This document shows positions 4,722-57,665 of a DNA stretch of 64,000 bases, piece by piece. The position numbers and the translations under genes are program-made. Under the pieces are notes generated by a model. It was not told the origin of the DNA and ran no database searches. It saw nothing but the letters and a program-made list of their open reading frames with translations. Each line of letters begins with the position of its first letter. Within the stretch, counting starts at the first letter, position 1. The DNA is from an uncultured Pseudomonadota bacterium (lineage in GTDB: Bacteria > Myxococcota_A > Polyangia > Fen-1088): NCBI GenBank assembly GCA_963847705.1, contig CAWKBC010000017.1:192001-256000 (forward strand), read 5' to 3'.

Positions 4722-5690
4722 GTGATACGCGTCGACGGTCTGGCGAAGACCTACGGCCGCTCCGGCGACGGTCGACCGCCGGCGCTGGAGGGGGTCTCGT
4801 TCGAGGTGGGGCGCGGCGAGATCGTTGGCCTCCTCGGGCCGAACGGCGCCGGCAAGTCGACGATGATGCGGATCCTGACATGCTTCCTGGCGCCGACGCG
4901 CGGGTCGGCCACGCTGGCGGGGGCTTCGATCGCCGACGATCCGCGGGGCGTGCGGCGCGCGGTCGGCTACCTCCCGGAGGCGGTCCCGCTGCCGCCCGAG
5001 ATGCGCGTCGTCGAGTACCTCGCTTTTCGGGCGGCGCTGAAGGGGCTCCCGCGCCGTGCCCGCCCGGCGGCGGTCTCCCGCGCCATCGAAGAGGTGGGGC
5101 TGGGGGCGCGGCGTGCCCAGATCATCGGGACGCTGTCGCGCGGGTACCGGCAGCGGGTGGGGCTGGCGGACGCGCTCCTCGGAGGGCCTCCTATCTTGAT
5201 CCTCGACGAGCCGACGGTCGGGCTCGATCCAAACCAGATCCGGGAGACGCGCGCGCTCATCCGCGAGCTCGGCCGTGAACGGACCATCCTGCTGTCGACC
5301 CACGTGCTCCCCGAGGTGGAGGCGGTCGCCACGCGGGTCATCATCTTGCACCACGGCCGCGTGGTCGCTGCGCAAACCCAGGACGAGCTCGGGGCCCGCC
5401 TGGCCGGCGCGCGCCGGGTGATCGTCGAGCTCTCCGCCGCGGAGCTCCCCCGCGCGACCGAGCTCCTGCGCACGGTCGCGGGGGTGGCCGCGGTGGCTCC
5501 GCTCGGCGAGACGCGGCTGGCGCTGACGCCGGCCTCGGGTGCCTCCGACGACGAGGGCGCTCTGCGCGAGGCGGTCTTCCGGGCGGCCGTCGCCGCCGGC
5601 CTGGTCCTCCGCGAGCTGCGCCCCGAGGCCGCCTCGCTGGAGGAGCTGTTCGCGCGCGCGACCTCCCGGAACGGGGAGCGACCGGCGTGA
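4722..5690 (+). CDS. ABC transporter ATP-binding protein (GldA-like)
   Basis: Walker A GPNGAGKST, signature LSRGYRQR, Walker B ILDEPT. Confidence 0.95.
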   Translation: MIRVDGLAKTYGRSGDGRPPALEGVSFEVGRGEIVGLLGPNGAGKSTMMRILTCFLAPTRGSATLAGASIADDPRGVRRAVGYLPEAVPLPPEMRVVEYLAFRAALKGLPRRARPAAVSRAIEEVGLGARRAQIIGTLSRGYRQRVGLADALLGGPPILILDEPTVGLDPNQIRETRALIRELGRERTILLSTHVLPEVEAVATRVIILHHGRVVAAQTQDELGARLAGARRVIVELSAAELPRATELLRTVAGVAAVAPLGETRLALTPASGASDDEGALREAVFRAAVAAGLVLRELRPEAASLEELFARATSRNGERPA

Positions 5691-35441: not shown

Positions 35442-36665
35442 TCAGGGAGTCGCCAGGGCTGCCCGACAGGAGAGTTTCCCCGCCGCCACCTGGGCCGCCA
35501 GCGTGGTCAGCTCGGGCAAGGCGGTCCCAGGATCGGCGGTCGGCGGGCGCACCCCACCCGGCTTCACGGTCGCGCCGTAGGTGGTGATGACGAAGATCCG
35601 GATGACGTCACTTCGCTCCGCGGGGAGCGCCCGGGCGTAAGCCTCGACGAGATCGCCGATGTCCCGCGGCGGCCGCCCTTCGAGGACCGCGCGGCCCCAG
35701 GCCGACAGCAGCTTGGCCTGAAAGTTCCGGAAGGGACCGAGCACGGCGGCGGGGCTGACCCCGGCGGGAATTCGGTCGGTCACGAACGGCGCGTAGACCT
35801 CGGCCGGAGCGATCTTGCGCCCGACCGTCTTCGACTGGGCCAGACGATAGAGCACGGTCGCCGCCACCCCGGGATCCTCCAGGAGATCGGCCGCCGCCCG
35901 CGGCGCGCCGTCGGCGCCGAGGACGTAGCGGTTCTCCCGCACCGCCGCGAACAGCGCGCGCTGGCTGCTGGTCCCGGCGCCGGCCGGCAGCGTCCCGGCG
36001 GGCCCCTCCCCCATCCGCCACTCGCGTGCGATCACCTCCAGCGACCCGGCGTAGCCCTCCAGAAGCGGCCGGGGCGGTGGGCTCGGCGCGCCGGCCGCCA
36101 CGCGAGCGGCCGCCTCGTACCCGATGAGACCGGCCAGCGTCTGGGGCAAGGCGCGGTCCTGATCCGGATAGGTGGGGAGCGCGATCCAGGCGACGTCGGC
36201 GTGCTCGTTGACGCCGCCGAAGGTCCCCTTCAGCGCCAGGCCCCGCCCGGTCTTGTCGCCCACCGGGGCGCCGACGATGAAGGCGGTCGGCTGCGCCGCC
36301 TCGGCCCGATCGGCGTCGGGGAAGCGCTTGCCGCCCACGTTGGCGTCGCGCACCAGCTGCTTGGCCAGGTAGTCGGTGCGCAGCACCTCGCCGGAGAATC
36401 CGGCCAACAACTGCTGGTAGAGCGGCGCGGCGCGCGGATCGTCGGGCGCCACGGTCGACACCAGCGGCAGGCCCGCCGGGCTGCGCGTCGCAGCGTTGGC
36501 GCCCTCGAGCGGAGCGTAGACCGCGAACGAATCGGGCGGCCCCAGCGAGGGGTCGCGGTGACAGCCGAGCGCGCCGGCCCCGGCCCAGGCGACCAACGCG
36601 AACAGCGCAACGCCGCTGGCGTCCCGAGATCCCCGCGCCTTCCCGCCGCGCGCGGCGGGCGTCAT
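35442..36665 (-). CDS. Hypothetical lipoprotein
   Basis: Lipobox ALGC; ATGA overlap with the upstream gene. Confidence 0.65.
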   Translation of the reverse strand: MTPAARGGKARGSRDASGVALFALVAWAGAGALGCHRDPSLGPPDSFAVYAPLEGANAATRSPAGLPLVSTVAPDDPRAAPLYQQLLAGFSGEVLRTDYLAKQLVRDANVGGKRFPDADRAEAAQPTAFIVGAPVGDKTGRGLALKGTFGGVNEHADVAWIALPTYPDQDRALPQTLAGLIGYEAAARVAAGAPSPPPRPLLEGYAGSLEVIAREWRMGEGPAGTLPAGAGTSSQRALFAAVRENRYVLGADGAPRAAADLLEDPGVAATVLYRLAQSKTVGRKIAPAEVYAPFVTDRIPAGVSPAAVLGPFRNFQAKLLSAWGRAVLEGRPPRDIGDLVEAYARALPAERSDVIRIFVITTYGATVKPGGVRPPTADPGTALPELTTLAAQVAAGKLSCRAALATP

Positions 36666-37084
36666 TGGATCCGCGCCGACTCGGCGGGCTCGCAGTAACG
36701 ATGAAGCAGCCGCGTCAGCGCGTCGAAGTCAACCGGCTTGTAGAGCACGGTGACGTCCTCTCGCACGCCGATCATCTGGTCGTTGGCCGCCGTCATGATG
36801 ACCCGCGGGATCGACGCCAGTTTGGGCGACTTCTTGATCACCTTGAGCAGCTCGACCCCGTTCATGACCGGCATGAACAGATCGATCAGCATCAGCGCCG
36901 GGACCTCGTCCTCGAGCAGGAGCAGCGCTTCGCGCCCGTTGCCGGCGCAGATGGCCCGGTAGCCGCTGTCCTCGACGACATCGTTGATGGTCAGCGCCAC
37001 GTCATGGTCGTCCTCGACGATCAACACCGCGGGACGCAGGGTTGAGGTCGGACCGGGTCCGGCGGACGACGGTTTCGTGGCCAT
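36662..37084 (-). CDS. Single-domain response regulator
   Basis: LIVEDD, IDLFMPVMNG, MTA, KP. Confidence 0.9.
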   Translation of the reverse strand: MATKPSSAGPGPTSTLRPAVLIVEDDHDVALTINDVVEDSGYRAICAGNGREALLLLEDEVPALMLIDLFMPVMNGVELLKVIKKSPKLASIPRVIMTAANDQMIGVREDVTVLYKPVDFDALTRLLHRYCEPAESARIQ

Positions 37085-37183
37085 TGGGTTCACGTGTGTG
37101 CGCTGCGCGGTCTGGCTTCGTGCTCTCTATAGATCCGAGATCGACCGGGATCAATGCTCCCAGACGTAAAAGCTGAAGCGTGA

Positions 37184-37323
37184 GACACCGAGATCATCCT
37201 CTTCGACGCCGCCTGCACCGCGAAGGATGGCAAGCCCTACCACAACACGTACACCTGGTACTTCCGCATGAGGCGGATCGGGTCGTCAGCGCGAGCGCCT
37301 TCTTCGACCCCCGTGACTTCGCC
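37184..37323 (+). pseudogene. Fragment of an NTF2/SnoaL-like (ketosteroid isomerase-like) gene
   Basis: DTEIILFDAACTAKDGKPYHNTYTWYFRM, then after a frameshift VVSASAFFDPRDF; no N-terminal part. Confidence 0.6.
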
Positions 37324-37347
37324 AAGCGGCCCGCCCTCCAAGTCCAG

Positions 37348-37421
<74 letters not shown>

Positions 37422-37728
37422 GTGCAAGTTATTTCGGTGAGTTACATCCGGAGCGTCGTGTGATGCTTTCGAGTCTGCACCCGACCTTCCTGTGCGCGGG
37501 CAGTTCTACCACCTGCCCAGCCGGCCGAGAAAGGTCGACTGACGCCGCGCCGTGGGGACCGACCGCGACGGCGGGAACACGGCGTTCGGTGGAGATAGGG
37601 CGGAGCGGGCCGCATTCAAGTCTCGTTCCTGGCCGGACGATGTACCGAGCGTCAGAATCGTGCCTTCGGCGGAAGGCCACGATAAGATGGCGAGATCCGC
37701 GGAGAACACCGGCGACCGACGAGAAATA

Positions 37729-38316
37729 ATGTCTAGGGGAGACAAACGGTGGATCGTCGCCGGCTCGGTCGTTGTGCTGACGGGACTGGGCTGGTTTGCG
37801 CTGCGGGATCGCGGGACCAGCGGGTCCGAGCGAGCAGACGGCGACGAGCTACACGGATTTGGATCGCGACCGTTCGCGGCGGCCGACGCCAGGCTCCCCC
37901 CACCGCCCGAGACGCCCGAGCTGCTCGCCAAACAGGTCGAGGGGGCGATGGGGCGCTGGCGAACGGCGATCCTGGTGAAGGATGCCCCTTCGGTCGTCGC
38001 GCTCGACCTGACGTTCCGCCAGATGCCGGACCGTTACAGGGCCGCGCTGGCCGCGATCGCCGAGAGCGATGAGAACGAGCGCGTGCGGGCCTTCTCCACC
38101 CGCGTGCTCGGGAAGCTCAAGAACGCGGCGGAGGCGCCGCTCTACCGTCGCCTGCTCACCGACAGGAGCCCCTTCGTCCGCCAGAATGCAGTTTGGGCGC
38201 TGGGGGAGCTCGGCTCTGCCGCGGGCCCGGCCGTCGCCGAGCTGCAGAAGGCCAGCGCCCACGATCCGGCGAACGACGTCCGCGCCGCCGCCCGGGCCGC
38301 CCTCGCCAAGCGCTAG
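37729..38316 (+). CDS. Membrane-anchored HEAT-repeat protein
   Basis: N-terminal TM; ERVRAFSTRVLG, FVRQNAVWALG, DVRAAARAAL. Confidence 0.8.
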   Translation: MSRGDKRWIVAGSVVVLTGLGWFALRDRGTSGSERADGDELHGFGSRPFAAADARLPPPPETPELLAKQVEGAMGRWRTAILVKDAPSVVALDLTFRQMPDRYRAALAAIAESDENERVRAFSTRVLGKLKNAAEAPLYRRLLTDRSPFVRQNAVWALGELGSAAGPAVAELQKASAHDPANDVRAAARAALAKR

Positions 38317-38337
38317 CAGGAAGATCGGACCGTCATC

Positions 38338-38496
38338 GTGGCAAACAAAGCGAAACGAAAACCGACAGGACCGGCCAAGAAGGCCTGGCAGAAGCCGCGC
38401 ATCAAGAGTGGCCGCCTGTTCGAGTCGAACAGCCTGGCCTGCGGCAAGAACGGTCCCGGAATGGAATCGTGCGAGCAGTTCCCGAAGATGTCATGA
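38338..38496 (+). CDS. Putative RiPP precursor peptide (52 aa), absent from the ORF track
   Basis: MANKAKRKPTGPAKKAWQKPRIKSGRLFESNSLACGKNGPGMESCEQFPKMS*; WxKPxI leader motif; stop overlaps next ATG. Confidence 0.8.
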   Translation: MANKAKRKPTGPAKKAWQKPRIKSGRLFESNSLACGKNGPGMESCEQFPKMS

Positions 38497-39848
38497 CCAG
38501 ACCGGTCGCGGGCGGTTCCGAGAAGCTGACGCTTTCGCTTTCGCTTTCGCTTTCGATAGGGGGCATCGTCGGCTGCCTGGAGATCTCGGGGGCCCAGGCG
38601 GTCTTTCTCGAGCAGGTTCGGGCGCGCTACGGGGCGTTCATCCTGCCATCCGGCAGCCGCAGCGCCAGCGACTTCAGCCTGCGGCTGGCGCTGGAGCCGA
38701 GCGCCGCGCCCGGCGGCTCGGCTTCGAAGCGCCTGGCCGAGACCGAAGCGCACCCGTTGAAGGTCACGGTCAAGGGGTACGCCATCGCCGCCGAGCGGTG
38801 GGACTTTCGGGCGCGCCTCCAGGGACGTTCGACGCCGCGGTCGGTGCCGGGGCGCGGGATCAGTTATCGCGGCGAAGGTCGCTGTGAGGCCAGCCCGTTC
38901 GCGCTCGACTGCCTGCTGAGGGTGATCTACGCGACCCTGCTGCCGCGCGTGGGGGGGATGCTCATCCACGGCTGCGGCCTGCGGCACGCGGCGATCGGGG
39001 TGATCTTCCCGGGTGTGAGCGGCGCGGGGAAGAGCACTCTCGCGCGCAAGGCGCCGGACGCGGACGACGTGCTGTCAGACGAGCTGGTGGTGGTTCGCCG
39101 GCTGGACGATGGCTGGCGCGTGTACGGGACGCCGTTCTGGGGCGACTTCGCCCGCGGCGGCATCTCGATGCGCAGCTGGCCGCTGCGAACGGTGGCGTTC
39201 CTCAACCAGGCGCGCGAGGTGGCGATGACGCCGATCACCTCCTCGGATGCGACGCTGCGCCTGCTCGGCTGCTTCCTGGCCTTCACCACCGATCGCGCGT
39301 CGGTCGAGCGGAGCCTGGCCGTGGCCGTCCAGCTCTGCGCCGAGGTTCGCTCGGTCGAGGCGTCGCTGACCCGCGCGGCGCCCACGGCGATCGTGTTCCG
39401 CAAGCTCGCCCCGCACCTCGGGCCCGAGGTGACGCGCGCGGTGCCGCCTGCGAACGCGCGCGAGCTCATCTCCGAGTTCCGCGCGCTGCTGCGCAAGCAG
39501 CGGTCGTACTCCTTCAGGCCCAAAGGGACGGCGGGCGCCTGGCTCAAGAACGGCGAATCGCTCGCGGTCCAGACGCCCGGTCTCGGCGCGCCGCTCGGGC
39601 CGGGGGACGTCGTGCTGTCCTGGGTGCCCGGACCGACGCCCGACGAGGATGCCCTGGCCTGCCGCCGACTCTCGGCGGCGGGCGCGCGCGAGGCCGGGCA
39701 GGCCTGGATCGGGGGCGAGCTACTCGGCCGCGTCACCCTCGTCTCGCGCGACGGCAAGACCCTGCCGCTTCCGGGACGTGTCGCCGATCTGGCCCGCAGC
39801 TTCGGGCCGCTGGTCGCGATTCCCATGCTGAGGATGGCCGGACGATGA
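38493..39848 (+). CDS. HPr-kinase-like P-loop protein fused to a degenerate S24/S26 peptidase-like domain
   Basis: LIHGCG, GVSGAGKST, LSDE, GTPFWG; C-terminal LGPGDVVL...ELLGRV. Confidence 0.8.
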   Translation: MTRPVAGGSEKLTLSLSLSLSIGGIVGCLEISGAQAVFLEQVRARYGAFILPSGSRSASDFSLRLALEPSAAPGGSASKRLAETEAHPLKVTVKGYAIAAERWDFRARLQGRSTPRSVPGRGISYRGEGRCEASPFALDCLLRVIYATLLPRVGGMLIHGCGLRHAAIGVIFPGVSGAGKSTLARKAPDADDVLSDELVVVRRLDDGWRVYGTPFWGDFARGGISMRSWPLRTVAFLNQAREVAMTPITSSDATLRLLGCFLAFTTDRASVERSLAVAVQLCAEVRSVEASLTRAAPTAIVFRKLAPHLGPEVTRAVPPANARELISEFRALLRKQRSYSFRPKGTAGAWLKNGESLAVQTPGLGAPLGPGDVVLSWVPGPTPDEDALACRRLSAAGAREAGQAWIGGELLGRVTLVSRDGKTLPLPGRVADLARSFGPLVAIPMLRMAGR

Positions 39849-40117
39849 CCTACAAGCGCGATCCCGGCCTCCCGTTCCAGAAGCTGGAGGAGGAGACCAT
39901 CGTGGTCGACCCGCGCACCCGCGAGGTCCACCTGCTGAACGACACCGCGGCGCGCGTCTGGGAGCTCCTGGCGTCGTCCTCGACGCTCGACGAGCTGACG
40001 GAGACGCTGGCCGAGGAGTACGACGCGCCTGCGGAGGCGGTGCGCGCGGGCGTCGAGGAGCTGCTGGCCGGGTTGCGCGACAAGGGCCTCCTGGTCGACG
40101 TGGCTGAGGCGGCCTGA
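39845..40117 (+). CDS. PqqD family RiPP recognition element (RRE) protein
   Basis: 90 aa; HLLNDTAARVWELL, LAEEYD, L.DKGLL. Confidence 0.92.
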   Translation: MTYKRDPGLPFQKLEEETIVVDPRTREVHLLNDTAARVWELLASSSTLDELTETLAEEYDAPAEAVRAGVEELLAGLRDKGLLVDVAEAA

Positions 40118-40119
40118 GC

Positions 40120-41406
40120 GTGGACTCCGCGCCGCGCTGCCAGGACGAGGCGATCCTGACCCCGTCGGGCGAGCACGCGGTGGTGAGCCAGCTGCAGAGC
40201 ATGGCCTACCAGCGGATGATCCCGCTCAACGTCTCGCTCGAGCTGACGCTCAAGTGCAACATCCGGTGCCTCCACTGCTACAACTTCGACCGCGACACCG
40301 CCGGCCCTGCCTGCGGCCCGCGCGACGCGGCGTCGCCGGCCGGGGCGCTGTCTCCGGAGCTGTCTCCGGAGCTGTCTCCGGAGCTGTCCTTGGAGGAGAT
40401 CTTCCGGGTGATGGGCGAGCTGCGCGCCGCGGGGACGCTGTTCCTCTCGCTCACCGGTGGCGAGGTCCTGAGCTCGCCGCATCTCTTCCCGGTGCTCGAC
40501 CGCGCGCGCGAGCTCAACCTGGCGGTCCAGATGCTGAGCAACGGGACGCTGCTCCGCCCCGGCGTGGCGGCGCGCCTGGCGGGCTATCGCAACCTCCTCG
40601 GCGTCAGCATCAGCGTCTACGGCGCGACGCCGGAGGTGCACGACGCCATCACGCAGATCCGCGGCTCCTGGCGGCGGACGCTCGACGGCGCCGAGCGGCT
40701 GCGCGCCCAGGGGGTGGCCGTGCGCCTCAAGCTGATCGTGATGCGCCCGAACGTGCATGAGGTGGGCGCGATGCGGGCGCTCTGCGACGCCCGCGGGTTC
40801 CCCTACCTGCTCGATCTCACGGTCACGGCGCGCCACGACGGCACCAAAGGGAGCCTGGCCATGCGGATCACCGAGGCCGAGCTGGCCGCGCTCTACCAGG
40901 GCCCGCTCCACGATCTCATTCCCAACGGCCGTCGCGCCGTCGACGAGGAGGCGTTCCCCTGCAACTGCGCGCGCGGAAACGCCGCCATCTCGGCGCGCGG
41001 CGACGTGTTTCCTTGCGTGTCGGTCCCCTGGAGGGCCGGCAACGTGCGCCAGCGGCCGTTCGGGGAGATCTGGCGGAGCTCGCCGGTGTTCGAACGAATC
41101 CGCGGGCTGAAGATCGCCGACTACCCGGCCTGTGCCCCCTGCCCCGACAAGTCCTTCTGCTCGCGGGATCGCGGCGCCGCCTACAACGCCTCGGGGAGCT
41201 ACACCGGGATCGACCCATTCGTCTGCGCCGCCGCCGGCGTCGCGCGGGCCGTCGCGGAGACGCGCCCCGGCGAGGCCGCGCGCCCCGGCGAGGCCGCGCG
41301 CCCCGGCGTGGCCGCGCGCCCCGGCGAGGCCGCGCGCCCCGGCGTGGACAACCGACCGCCGGCCGCGCCCGACGTCCGGCTGCCGCTGGCGGTCGCCGCC
41401 CGCTGA
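40120..41406 (+). CDS. Radical SAM / SPASM domain peptide maturase
   Basis: CNIRCLHC (CxxxCxxC), LTGGE, SNG; SPASM C..G...I...GDVFPC and CAPC-x5-C. Confidence 0.93.
   Translation: MDSAPRCQDEAILTPSGEHAVVSQLQSMAYQRMIPLNVSLELTLKCNIRCLHCYNFDRDTAGPACGPRDAASPAGALSPELSPELSPELSLEEIFRVMGELRAAGTLFLSLTGGEVLSSPHLFPVLDRARELNLAVQMLSNGTLLRPGVAARLAGYRNLLGVSISVYGATPEVHDAITQIRGSWRRTLDGAERLRAQGVAVRLKLIVMRPNVHEVGAMRALCDARGFPYLLDLTVTARHDGTKGSLAMRITEAELAALYQGPLHDLIPNGRRAVDEEAFPCNCARGNAAISARGDVFPCVSVPWRAGNVRQRPFGEIWRSSPVFERIRGLKIADYPACAPCPDKSFCSRDRGAAYNASGSYTGIDPFVCAAAGVARAVAETRPGEAARPGEAARPGVAARPGEAARPGVDNRPPAAPDVRLPLAVAAR
41263..41346 (+). repeat. In-frame 18-bp tandem repeat (~4.7 copies)
   Basis: CGCCCCGGCG(A/T)GGCCGCG encoding RPG(E/V)AA. 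Confidence 0.9.
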
Positions 41407-41448
41407 GCGCTCTTTCTTGTCGACGGACCGTCGTCAGATTTATGGTCG

Positions 41449-41961
41449 GTGACCGCCATGCCGCCGCTCGTCCCCGTCGTGGAGGTCAAACAGACGATGG
41501 CGGGGGGCGAGAAGCGCTTCGACTGCCTGCGCCTCGCCGGCGGCGCCGGGCACGCCGTTCTGCTCTGGATCACGCCGGCGCCGATGCGCGTTCATGGCGT
41601 CGAGCTGCCGGCGGGGACCATCAGCTTCGGGCACTTCTGGACCAATCGGTTCTACAACGTCTACCACTGGCTCGACGCCGACCGCCGGACGCTGGGGTTC
41701 TATTTCAACCTGGCCGACCGAACGCAAATCGGCGAGGCCGAGCTCGTGTGGCGCGATCTGGTGGTGGATGTGCTGGCGACCCCGGCCGGCCGGCTGGAGG
41801 TCCTCGACGAGGATGAGCTGCCCGTCCTCGTCGACCCGGAGGTGGCGGCCCACATCGCCGCCGGCAAAGCGGCGATTCTGGGCGCGCCGACTCTGCTGAT
41901 GGCGGAGATCGAGACCGCCTCCCGGGCGCTGTTCCCGCTGGCCTTTCCAGCGTCCGGTTAA
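41449..41961 (+). CDS. DUF402 family protein
   Basis: YNVYHW, FYFNLA, WRDLVVDV, VLDEDEL. Confidence 0.8.
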   Translation: MTAMPPLVPVVEVKQTMAGGEKRFDCLRLAGGAGHAVLLWITPAPMRVHGVELPAGTISFGHFWTNRFYNVYHWLDADRRTLGFYFNLADRTQIGEAELVWRDLVVDVLATPAGRLEVLDEDELPVLVDPEVAAHIAAGKAAILGAPTLLMAEIETASRALFPLAFPASG

Positions 41962-42905
41962 GGGAGCTCGACCACCACGGGCTCGCGCGCGATCGCCGAC
42001 AGTGAGAATCCGCCGACGAGCGCGGCGGCCGGCAGCGACCGGCCGGGAGGACGAAGACCTGCCGAGGCGGCCAGCGCTCCCACCACGGTCTCGGGCGCCA
42101 CCCCCCGATCGCGCAGCGAGGCGAGCGTCGCCGGGCGCGTCCGCTTCGCCAGCCGCTCGCCGCCGGGCGTGACCACCAGCGGAACGTGTGCGAAGGCCGG
42201 CGGGGTCAGCTCGAGCGCGCGGTAAAGCGCGATCTGCCGCGGGGTCGAGCGCAGCAGATCGTCGCCGCGCACGACGCGCGTCACCTGCATCGCCGCGTCG
42301 TCGACGACCACGGCCAGCTGGTACGCGGCGGTGCCGTCGGCGCGGCGCAGGACGAAGTCGTCGACGCCACCCGCCTCGCTGGTCACCGCGCCATGAACCT
42401 CGTCGACGAAGTCGATCCGTTGCCCGCGGCCCACGAACCGCACGGCCGGCGCTCTCCCCTGGGCCTCCGCGCGCGCCGTCACGGCGGCGGGGTCGGTGTC
42501 GCGGCAGGTCCCGGGGTAGCGCGGCTCTGCCGCGGCGTCGTCATGCGGCGCGCTGGCGGCGCGGGCCACGTCGGCGCGCGAGCAGGCGCAGAGGAACGCC
42601 CGTTGCGAGACCAGCAGCCGCTCGATCGCCGCGTCGTAGTCTCGGGTGCGCTCGCTCTGTCGGTAGGGCGCGAACGGACCGCCGCGATCGGGCCCCTCGT
42701 CCCAGTCGAGCCCCAACCAGGCGAGATCCTCGAGCTGTCGCCGCTCGGCGTCGGGCTGCAGGCGTGCCCGATCGAGATCTTCGATCCGCATCAGGAAAGC
42801 GCCCCCCGCGCTGCGGGCGTCGAGCCAGGCGAAGAGCGCGGTCCGCGCGTTGCCGAGGTGAAGCTGGCCGGTGGGGCTGGGGGCGAAGCGGCCGCGGACC
42901 GGCAT
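41958..42905 (-). CDS. gluQ: Glutamyl-Q tRNA(Asp) synthetase
   Basis: RFAPSPTGQLHLGN, RIEDLD, CACSR, YQLAVVVDD, RLAKR; no anticodon-binding domain. Confidence 0.93.
   Translation of the reverse strand: MPVRGRFAPSPTGQLHLGNARTALFAWLDARSAGGAFLMRIEDLDRARLQPDAERRQLEDLAWLGLDWDEGPDRGGPFAPYRQSERTRDYDAAIERLLVSQRAFLCACSRADVARAASAPHDDAAAEPRYPGTCRDTDPAAVTARAEAQGRAPAVRFVGRGQRIDFVDEVHGAVTSEAGGVDDFVLRRADGTAAYQLAVVVDDAAMQVTRVVRGDDLLRSTPRQIALYRALELTPPAFAHVPLVVTPGGERLAKRTRPATLASLRDRGVAPETVVGALAASAGLRPPGRSLPAAALVGGFSLSAIAREPVVVELP

Positions 42906-45677: not shown

Positions 45678-45753
<76 letters not shown>

Positions 45754-57590: not shown

Positions 57591-57665
<75 letters not shown>

Follow-up and report, generated by a model that had tools for sequence, protein, structure and literature searches.

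Several of the described systems closest to the locus studied here pair an HprK-like kinase with a discrete RRE, and their kinases choose different residues. PsmK phosphorylates a C-terminal serine (PMC6993621), whereas BsfK, from a deltaproteobacterium, and LppK phosphorylate an internal one, Ser3 (PMC10368454 and PMC13381572, respectively), so the type of kinase alone cannot pick the target. In LPP, as far as the account consulted goes, a leader peptidase cuts after F-E-T and needs the RRE, and the first helix of LppS contacts the RRE as judged by an AlphaFold model and mutants (PMC13381572). Among radical SAM/SPASM enzymes, AlbA and CteB, which form thioethers, are described as having seven cysteines with the Aux I site open, and PqqE uses an Asp as cluster ligand (PMC6231123); binding of a substrate Se-Cys to an auxiliary cluster has also been reported (PMC10177961).

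The window, meaning the whole stretch of 64,000 nucleotides analyzed, contains a cassette that joins two separately known RiPP modules, the kinase/RRE/signal-peptidase module of LPP (2026) and radical SAM/SPASM chemistry (Table 1). It is compact, a peptide gene plus three others, and can be tested directly by co-expression. A literature search, with subscription journals mostly outside its reach, found no description of this cassette. New from this analysis are a kinase-peptidase fusion with repeated catalytic loss, a swap of cysteines in the SPASM domain, and the comparison of Ser52 with Ser32 as the residue phosphorylated.

Table 1. Features of the cassette in window coordinates, with the evidence or remarks for each
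Feature	Position	Strand	Evidence or remarks
HEAT-repeat protein, hydrophobic N-terminal stretch	37552..38316	+	Pfam HEAT_2, E 1e-14; start codon uncertain
Precursor peptide gene, 52 aa	38338..38496	+	GTG start; synteny, selection, homologs
Motif W17-x-x-P20-x-I22, RRE-binding type (predicted binding)	38386..38403	+	Analogy to PMC13381572
F28-E29-S30-N31-S32-L33-A34-C35	38419..38442	+	Both candidate cleavage sites, rival acceptor Ser32, Cys35
Cys45, second conserved cysteine	38470..38472	+	Homolog alignment
Ser52, terminal residue, likely phospho-acceptor	38491..38493	+	119/120 homologs; 25/43 distant precursors
HprK/PEPCK-fold kinase with C-terminal signal-peptidase-like domain	38493..39848	+	451 aa; ScmC-like, below cut-off
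Archaeal-type signal peptidase (S26)-like domain, about residues 318-451	39444..39845	+	Motifs absent; first helix conserved
Stand-alone PqqD/RRE protein	39845..40117	+	PF05402, E 8e-19; TIGR04353 over cut-off
Radical SAM/SPASM enzyme	40120..41406	+	CxxxCxxC at 46/50/53; SPASM Cys 281, 283, 299, 338, 341, 347, 369
DUF402 protein	41449..41961	+	Usually next downstream; apart from cassette in some relatives; membership uncertain

The precursor gene and its surroundings

The initial annotation described a 52-residue precursor with a WxKPxI leader motif, a C-x9-C core and a terminal serine, and translation of 38338-38496 bears out every one of these elements: WQKPRI occupies residues 17-22, Cys35 and Cys45 show the nine-residue spacing, and Ser52 is the last residue. 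The TGA stop codon overlaps the ATG of the kinase gene at 38493. The annotation also proposed looking for the same peptide upstream of homologous kinases. There, the ORF precedes the kinase in all 28 loci with a strong kinase match (the window's own locus included), each with the order HEAT, precursor, HprK-type kinase, PqqD/RRE and radical SAM/SPASM. Across 61 genomes searched with the kinase, many of them incomplete, a strong match was found in 23 of 25 from the same genus and 4 of 11 others from the same family.

The peptide evolves as a coding sequence. Over the block from W17 to K37, pS is 0.52 and pN 0.093 (ratio 0.18), with 821, 848 and 2831 differences at codon positions 1, 2 and 3, and the length changes among aligned homologs are in-frame only. 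Trp 17 and Pro 20 are invariant in 22/22 aligned precursors. A profile search with the precursor returned 363 proteins at E<=10, called as genes in hundreds of assemblies; the best 120 of these 363 matches supply the homolog counts given below for the serine, cysteine and lysine positions. The C-x9-C spacing is present in 108 of 118 scored homologs. Pattern matching recovered a precursor at 40 of 56 metagenome loci, each with a terminal Ser; the other loci are mostly cut contigs or fall outside the precursor pattern. Neither NCBIfam nor Pfam contains a family matching the 52-residue peptide, and a PDB sequence search with the precursor profile gave nothing significant. The non-ATG start and the lack of a family match would suit conserved intergenic DNA, but that reading is effectively refuted already by the substitution ratio and third-position bias, the purely in-frame length changes and the gene calls in other assemblies. 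The precursor ORF is a genuine small gene, strongly conserved in soil Polyangia-type bacteria, and it almost certainly encodes the precursor of this operon.

The same-strand run from the HEAT gene to the DUF402 gene converges on gluQ, and larger metagenome loci have a fixed neighborhood with a response regulator upstream and DUF402, gluQ, apt and nlpD downstream. An atlas search with the HEAT protein returned generic HEAT clusters only. A promoter scan revealed no sigma-70-like site, and terminators were at chance level. A divergent tRNA-Arg (37347-37421, minus strand) lies just upstream of the operon; tRNA-Pro and tRNA-Val are also in the window, the other tRNA coordinates being 45678-45753 and 57591-57665, both on the minus strand. 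The 407-residue product of 35442-36665 (minus strand) matches no family; many related loci conserve it, placed upstream of their response regulator.

A loose pattern, [WY]xxPx[ILV]..C..C..S*, occurs four times in the 6.1-Mb genome, and two of these occurrences are the window's precursor and a paralogous one beside a second kinase/radical-SAM cassette. This paralogous cassette (contig C32, about 272200-268630, minus strand) comprises an RRE, a radical SAM enzyme, a kinase, a three-Cys YxxP precursor with Ser at its C-terminus and an intact S26-like peptidase encoded on its own, and is located downstream of a large gene of about 890 codons. Its leader has Tyr where the window's has Trp, a contrast reported to separate co-resident pathways (PMC13381572). 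Two further clusters are present in the same genome. At about 9000-14000 of contig C41, more RRE and kinase-like genes accompany a small Cys-free YxxPxL peptide, possibly a lasso- or LPP-like cluster. At about 44400-47700 of contig C27, an RRE and a radical SAM enzyme follow a small W-x-x-P peptide, presumably a cassette resembling the PQQ type.

The leader, its candidate cut sites and the fused peptidase-like domain

The RRE-type leader motif of the initial annotation is present as [W/Y]xxPx[I/L/V], and it lies beside an RRE, an HPr-kinase/PEPCK-fold kinase and a radical SAM/SPASM enzyme. The PqqD/RRE protein scores 39 bits against the TIGR04353 cut-off of 35, and its PDB matches include RREs, 9x8z among them. 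By analogy with described RRE-leader pairs, the RRE can be expected with high confidence to bind the WxxPxI leader.

Where the leader ends is less clear. The boundary drawn before Cys35 by the initial annotation stands as one of two candidates, the other being after F28-E29-S30, as in LPP. Since the LPP peptidase cuts after F-E-T, the F28-E29-S30 segment is a candidate cut site in relatives with an intact peptidase. Signal peptidases follow a small-residue rule around the cut site, and a cut before Cys35, the second candidate, fits this rule. The evidence on the two is in conflict: the L167 locus, which encodes an intact peptidase, has Lys before the Cys, arguing against a cut there, while loci with an intact S26 gene and Arg or Lys after F-E or L-E argue against a simple small-residue rule after F-E-x. 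The calculated monoisotopic masses of the window's peptide, taken as unmodified, are 2313.99 for residues 31-52, 1928.79 for 35-52 and 5573.87 for 2-52.

The C-terminal domain fused to the kinase, which the initial annotation did not mention, resembles archaeal-type signal peptidases, but in the window it lacks all three catalytic motifs (the catalytic Ser, the His and K-G-D). Relatives keep them as G-x-S-M-x-P, H-R and K-G-D, and the basal ones have an intact set. The archaeal signal peptidase model TIGR02228 matches 4/4 intact fusions tested, below its cut-off (E 1.6e-5 to 3.9e-9), and one stand-alone relative passes that cut-off; in a whole-model structure search, the domain reached only Z 3.2 to the E. 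coli signal peptidase. A stand-alone S26-like gene is present in 27 of the 44 non-fused loci examined, which makes the peptidase a frequent component of the wider family. Among 145 proteins, some of them partial, all three motifs were found in 27 and none in 74. A tree restricted to the kinase portion, with 46 of 55 rows retained, requires four changes for the catalytic Ser to be lost, and strong branches force at least three of them. Because the Ser, His and Asp motifs are lost, the operon is predicted not to cut its own leader, and the fused domain very probably does not do so.

Despite this loss, the first helix of the domain is highly conserved. Across 87 dead-domain proteins, residues 318-337 have a mean conservation of 0.97, compared with 0.93 for the kinase core and 0.57-0.84 for the rest of the domain. 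The contact between the first helix of LppS and the RRE in LPP makes docking a plausible reason for the retention of the domain, which likely persists in a docking or structural role; the conserved helix would be accounted for equally if it packed against the kinase. It is also possible, if doubtful, that the dead domain is simply degenerating or serves for packing inside the kinase and that a trans-acting peptidase removes the leader. The intact stand-alone S26 gene of the second cassette (C32:268634-269134) is a candidate for that role, the fusion model (pTM 0.90) is compatible with helix 318-337 packing on the kinase, and the lower conservation of the rest of the domain would suit decay. 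On the other hand, the domain is kept near full length after each loss, the equivalent LppS helix contacts the RRE in the LPP account, and this query did not recover the second-cassette kinase from many of the fusion genomes, incomplete as these are. Natural homologs that lack the protease triad can be compared directly with those that keep it, such as L020 and L021, to map the cut site and to ask what the dead peptidase does.

The kinase and its probable target serine

Weak ScmC and HprK-related matches and the Pfam label PF27840 accompany the kinase, and a PDB sequence search with it gave nothing significant. The alignment-based model of the fusion (150 rows) has a pLDDT of 89.8, and a Foldseek search with the kinase model leads to PEPCK. 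VIA-align matches the model to PEPCK with Z 14.6 and, over model residues 153-315, to four HPr kinases with Z 9.3-9.6. Residues His 159, Gly 174, Gly 179, Lys 180, Asp 196 and Glu 197 are conserved in at least 90% of the 150 rows and align with the BsfK motif H-G-G-G-K-S-D-D (PMC10368454). Near the 5' end of the kinase gene (38528-38555), about four copies of a 6-base tandem repeat encode a Leu-Ser run.

The initial annotation proposed Ser52 as the kinase target. Ser is the last residue in 119/120 homologs even though its distance from the last Cys ranges from 7 to 10. Two other serines are about as constant, with Ser32 in 120/120 and Ser30 in 117/120 close homologs. Ser52 also sits at a gene junction, and a control is available at the next ATGA overlap, between the kinase and RRE genes, where the kinase's own last residue is likewise invariant (Arg, 28/28). 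The invariance of Ser52 among close relatives alone thus proves little, and we turned to a distant set, 43 precursors encoded next to kinases without the fusion and selected by eye among pattern hits.

In this set, Ser is the last residue of 25 precursors, the second-last of 4 and in neither position in 14. Fifteen of the 25 lack a start-codon overlap, and in these fifteen the terminal Ser is written with five codons (TCC, TCG, TCT, TCA and AGC) before all three stops; the background of terminal Ser is 8.5% among 3296 long GC3-rich ORFs of this genome. On a kinase tree, terminal Ser appears in several deep clades and six non-Ser rows fall in two. The tree kept 44 of 54 labelled rows, leaving out 8 non-Ser rows outside a strict P-loop pattern and 2 Ser-ending rows, and because the rows are related the counts are not independent. 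Dead kinases beside the 14 non-Ser precursors were considered and rejected, as most of these kinases retain the His, the Walker A motif and the acidic residues, although 8 of the 14 lie outside the strict P-loop pattern.

Position 32 behaves differently. It is Ala in six loci that are the nearest non-fused relatives (L044, L045, L170, L172, L173 and L174) and is missing in the basal fusion L167, yet all seven precursors end in Ser. The L167 locus (4748-4909, plus strand) has an intact peptidase and no HEAT match; its 53-residue precursor contains three Cys, lacks the N-S-L stretch and has Arg in place of Lys37. Given the 25 terminal serines in the distant set and the frequent Ala at position 32 there, Ser52 is favored over Ser32, and we consider it probable on these comparisons that Ser52 is phosphorylated.

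The case for Ser52 has limits: 14 distant precursors have no Ser in either of the last two positions although most of their kinases retain the motifs, LppK and BsfK target Ser3, and Ser32 is as invariant among close homologs. The kinase could act on Ser32 (or Ser30) in the way of LppK and BsfK, with Ser52 kept for another reason or both residues modified. Such an arrangement would echo the LPP consensus YxxP...FETxxS, cut after F-E-T and phosphorylated at S3, to which the window's F-E-S-N-S can be compared; BsfK, which targets Ser3, is itself deltaproteobacterial, and both serines persist where the peptidase is dead. We regard it as rather unlikely, since Ser32 would sit at +2 and not +3 and is Ala or absent in the very relatives that retain the terminal Ser. 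The position equivalent to Cys35 points the same way: it is Ser or Thr in 10 of the 14 precursors without a terminal or second-last Ser and in 2 of the 29 others, a post hoc comparison of rows that are not independent. In one genus (L103, L106 and L113), the last residue of the precursor varies among Ser, Val and Thr, but the Cys35 equivalent is always Ser, which suggests a different kinase target in that branch.

Radical SAM chemistry, the proposed pathway and known systems

In family searches the radical SAM enzyme scores highest against heme-biosynthesis and mycofactocin enzymes, without reaching any cut-off, and its top PDB sequence match is PqqE. PqqE forms a C-C bond. Short repeated peptide inserts are found in the gene product near residues 70-85 and in the C-terminal tail. 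Among 57 aligned SPASM domains, the 20 with a first-position C-x-C all lack the Cys three residues after CxxCx5C, whereas 36 of the other 37 have it; the window has Asp350 there. Through this swap the SPASM cysteine count is held at seven. The eighth cluster site in the window enzyme could be filled by Asp350 or, in homologs, by the variable Cys288, an extra cysteine of many close homologs.

The initial annotation proposed both cysteines of the peptide as thioether donors. Cys is the residue type common to all 43 distant precursors, 41 of which have two or more. Based on the seven SPASM cysteines, we infer thioether donation, and a thioether from Cys35 and/or Cys45 is somewhat favored. Lys37 (120/120 homologs; Arg in L167) and Asp/Glu43 (104/108; not kept in distant precursors) are candidate acceptors, neither of them universal. 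The cysteines might instead form a disulfide or bind a metal, the radical SAM enzyme acting elsewhere, for example on Lys37, on Asp/Glu43 or on the phosphorylated C-terminus. For this speaks the widely varying Cys-Cys spacing of the distant precursors, the lack of a universal acceptor, the resemblance to PqqE in its top PDB match and possible Asp ligand, the extra Cys288, and the occurrence of two-Cys precursors without an adjacent radical SAM gene. Six loci (L177, L178, L179, L180, L185 and L192) have a precursor and a kinase, the stretch fetched around them containing no gene for a radical SAM enzyme, an RRE or an S26 peptidase, and three of their precursors end in Ser-Gly or Ser-Ala; similar radical SAM enzymes are encoded elsewhere in 4 of 5 tested genomes with no cassette-adjacent radical SAM gene. 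The retention of cysteines throughout the distant set and the compensating swap at seven count against a non-thioether role, as does the breadth of sactisynthases, which accept varied acceptor residues, and we view that role as doubtful.

In the proposed pathway, the WxxPxI leader of the precursor is the likely ligand of the PqqD-type protein, and Ser52, at the C-terminus, the likely site of phosphorylation by the enzyme with the HPr-kinase fold. Thioethers joining Cys35 and/or Cys45 to a carbon of the backbone or of a side chain would likely be made by the radical SAM/SPASM enzyme. The fused dead domain would cut no leader of its own and would likely act as a docking or structural module, leaving either a modified full-length peptide or one trimmed by another protease. 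Taken as a whole (RRE-bound leader, phosphorylated Ser52, Cys thioether or thioethers and no cleavage by the fused domain), we judge the scheme evenly balanced between right and wrong.

The presence in 23 of 25 same-genus genomes, the fixed chromosomal neighborhood and the absence of an exporter among the cassette genes hint at a core function, in contrast to the patchy distribution reported for LPP and paeninodins. Carried further, one could imagine that the leader peptidase fused to the kinase repeatedly became a non-catalytic adaptor docking the kinase on the RRE-leader complex, and that the product is an uncut intracellular peptide of 51 residues, phosphorylated and thioether-cyclized, that serves a core cellular function across a widespread family of soil myxobacteria and is not an exported antibiotic. 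If true, this would be the first type of product for the large unstudied family of kinase/signal-peptidase/radical-SAM cassettes, whose phosphorylated residue appears to alternate between the C-terminus and the start of the core. This extension is speculative and, in our estimate, unlikely to hold in full.

By the tests run, the cassette is not a member of LPP, the phosphorylated lasso peptides, SynChlorMet or HPr-rel-A, and no curated model covers its precursor. LPP (LppA/K/B/S/D/N; PMC13381572) shares with the window a [Y/W]xxP leader followed by F-E-x, a discrete RRE and an HprK-like kinase, and with the wider family an archaeal-type signal peptidase, which in LPP is an active leader peptidase. 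In LPP as described, the peptidase is active and encoded separately, an NTP transferase and an exporter are present, phosphorylation falls on the internal Ser3, and the main text of that report mentions no radical SAM enzyme. The window has a radical SAM/SPASM enzyme, two conserved Cys, a terminal Ser and a peptidase fused to the kinase without catalytic residues, so that a homologous domain is present but the Ser-His-Asp of an active SpI is absent. No NTP transferase or MsbA-like exporter was found among the genes scanned from 35442 to 42905, including the six co-oriented genes. Only [W/Y]xxP and F-E-[S/T] are common to the precursor and the LPP consensus YxxPxVLxHQxIxFETxxS; the W-to-F spacing is 11 compared with 13 in LPP, and the Ser is at +2.

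The paeninodin/pseudomycoidin lasso systems (PadeK, PsmK; PMC6993621) and Bsf (PMC10368454) are described with a WxxPx[L/I] leader, a discrete RRE and an HprK-type motif, all of which resemble the window. The window peptide also ends in Ser, the C-terminal residue targeted by PadeK and PsmK (PMC6993621), and the His, Walker A and acidic pair of the kinase are present, though the pair is D-E where BsfK and PsmK have D-D. Unlike the phosphorylated lasso clusters, the window has a radical SAM enzyme, and no family match to a macrolactam cyclase (C) or B2 protease was found among the operon and flanking genes. SynChlorMet contains the same kinds of parts, an ScmC-like kinase (E 4e-11), PqqD and radical SAM/SPASM, but has two radical SAM genes to the window's one. 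Its models all score below cut-off here (ScmC TIGR04249 43/125, ScmD TIGR04248 22/100, ScmE TIGR04250 84/400 and ScmF TIGR04251 55/400), and ScmA (TIGR04252) matched nothing at the locus at E<=10 and none of 20 related precursors. For HPr-rel-A, the PqqD model TIGR04353 passes (39/35) and the kinase model TIGR04352 fails (19/200).

The sacti- and ranthipeptide maturases (AlbA, CteB, PapB and Tte1186; PMC6231123, PMC10177961 and PMC11002830) are, in the accounts consulted, like the window in their seven-Cys SPASM domain, RRE and Cys-bearing precursor, and the corresponding genes are all present at the locus, although the maturase models score below cut-off (AlbA 60/850, StsB 83/625). The window differs from them in its stand-alone RRE, in having only two Cys and no known donor-acceptor motif, and in the added kinase and peptidase-like domain. 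By these analogies, the cassette would work like LPP with an additional step of the sacti/ranthipeptide type.
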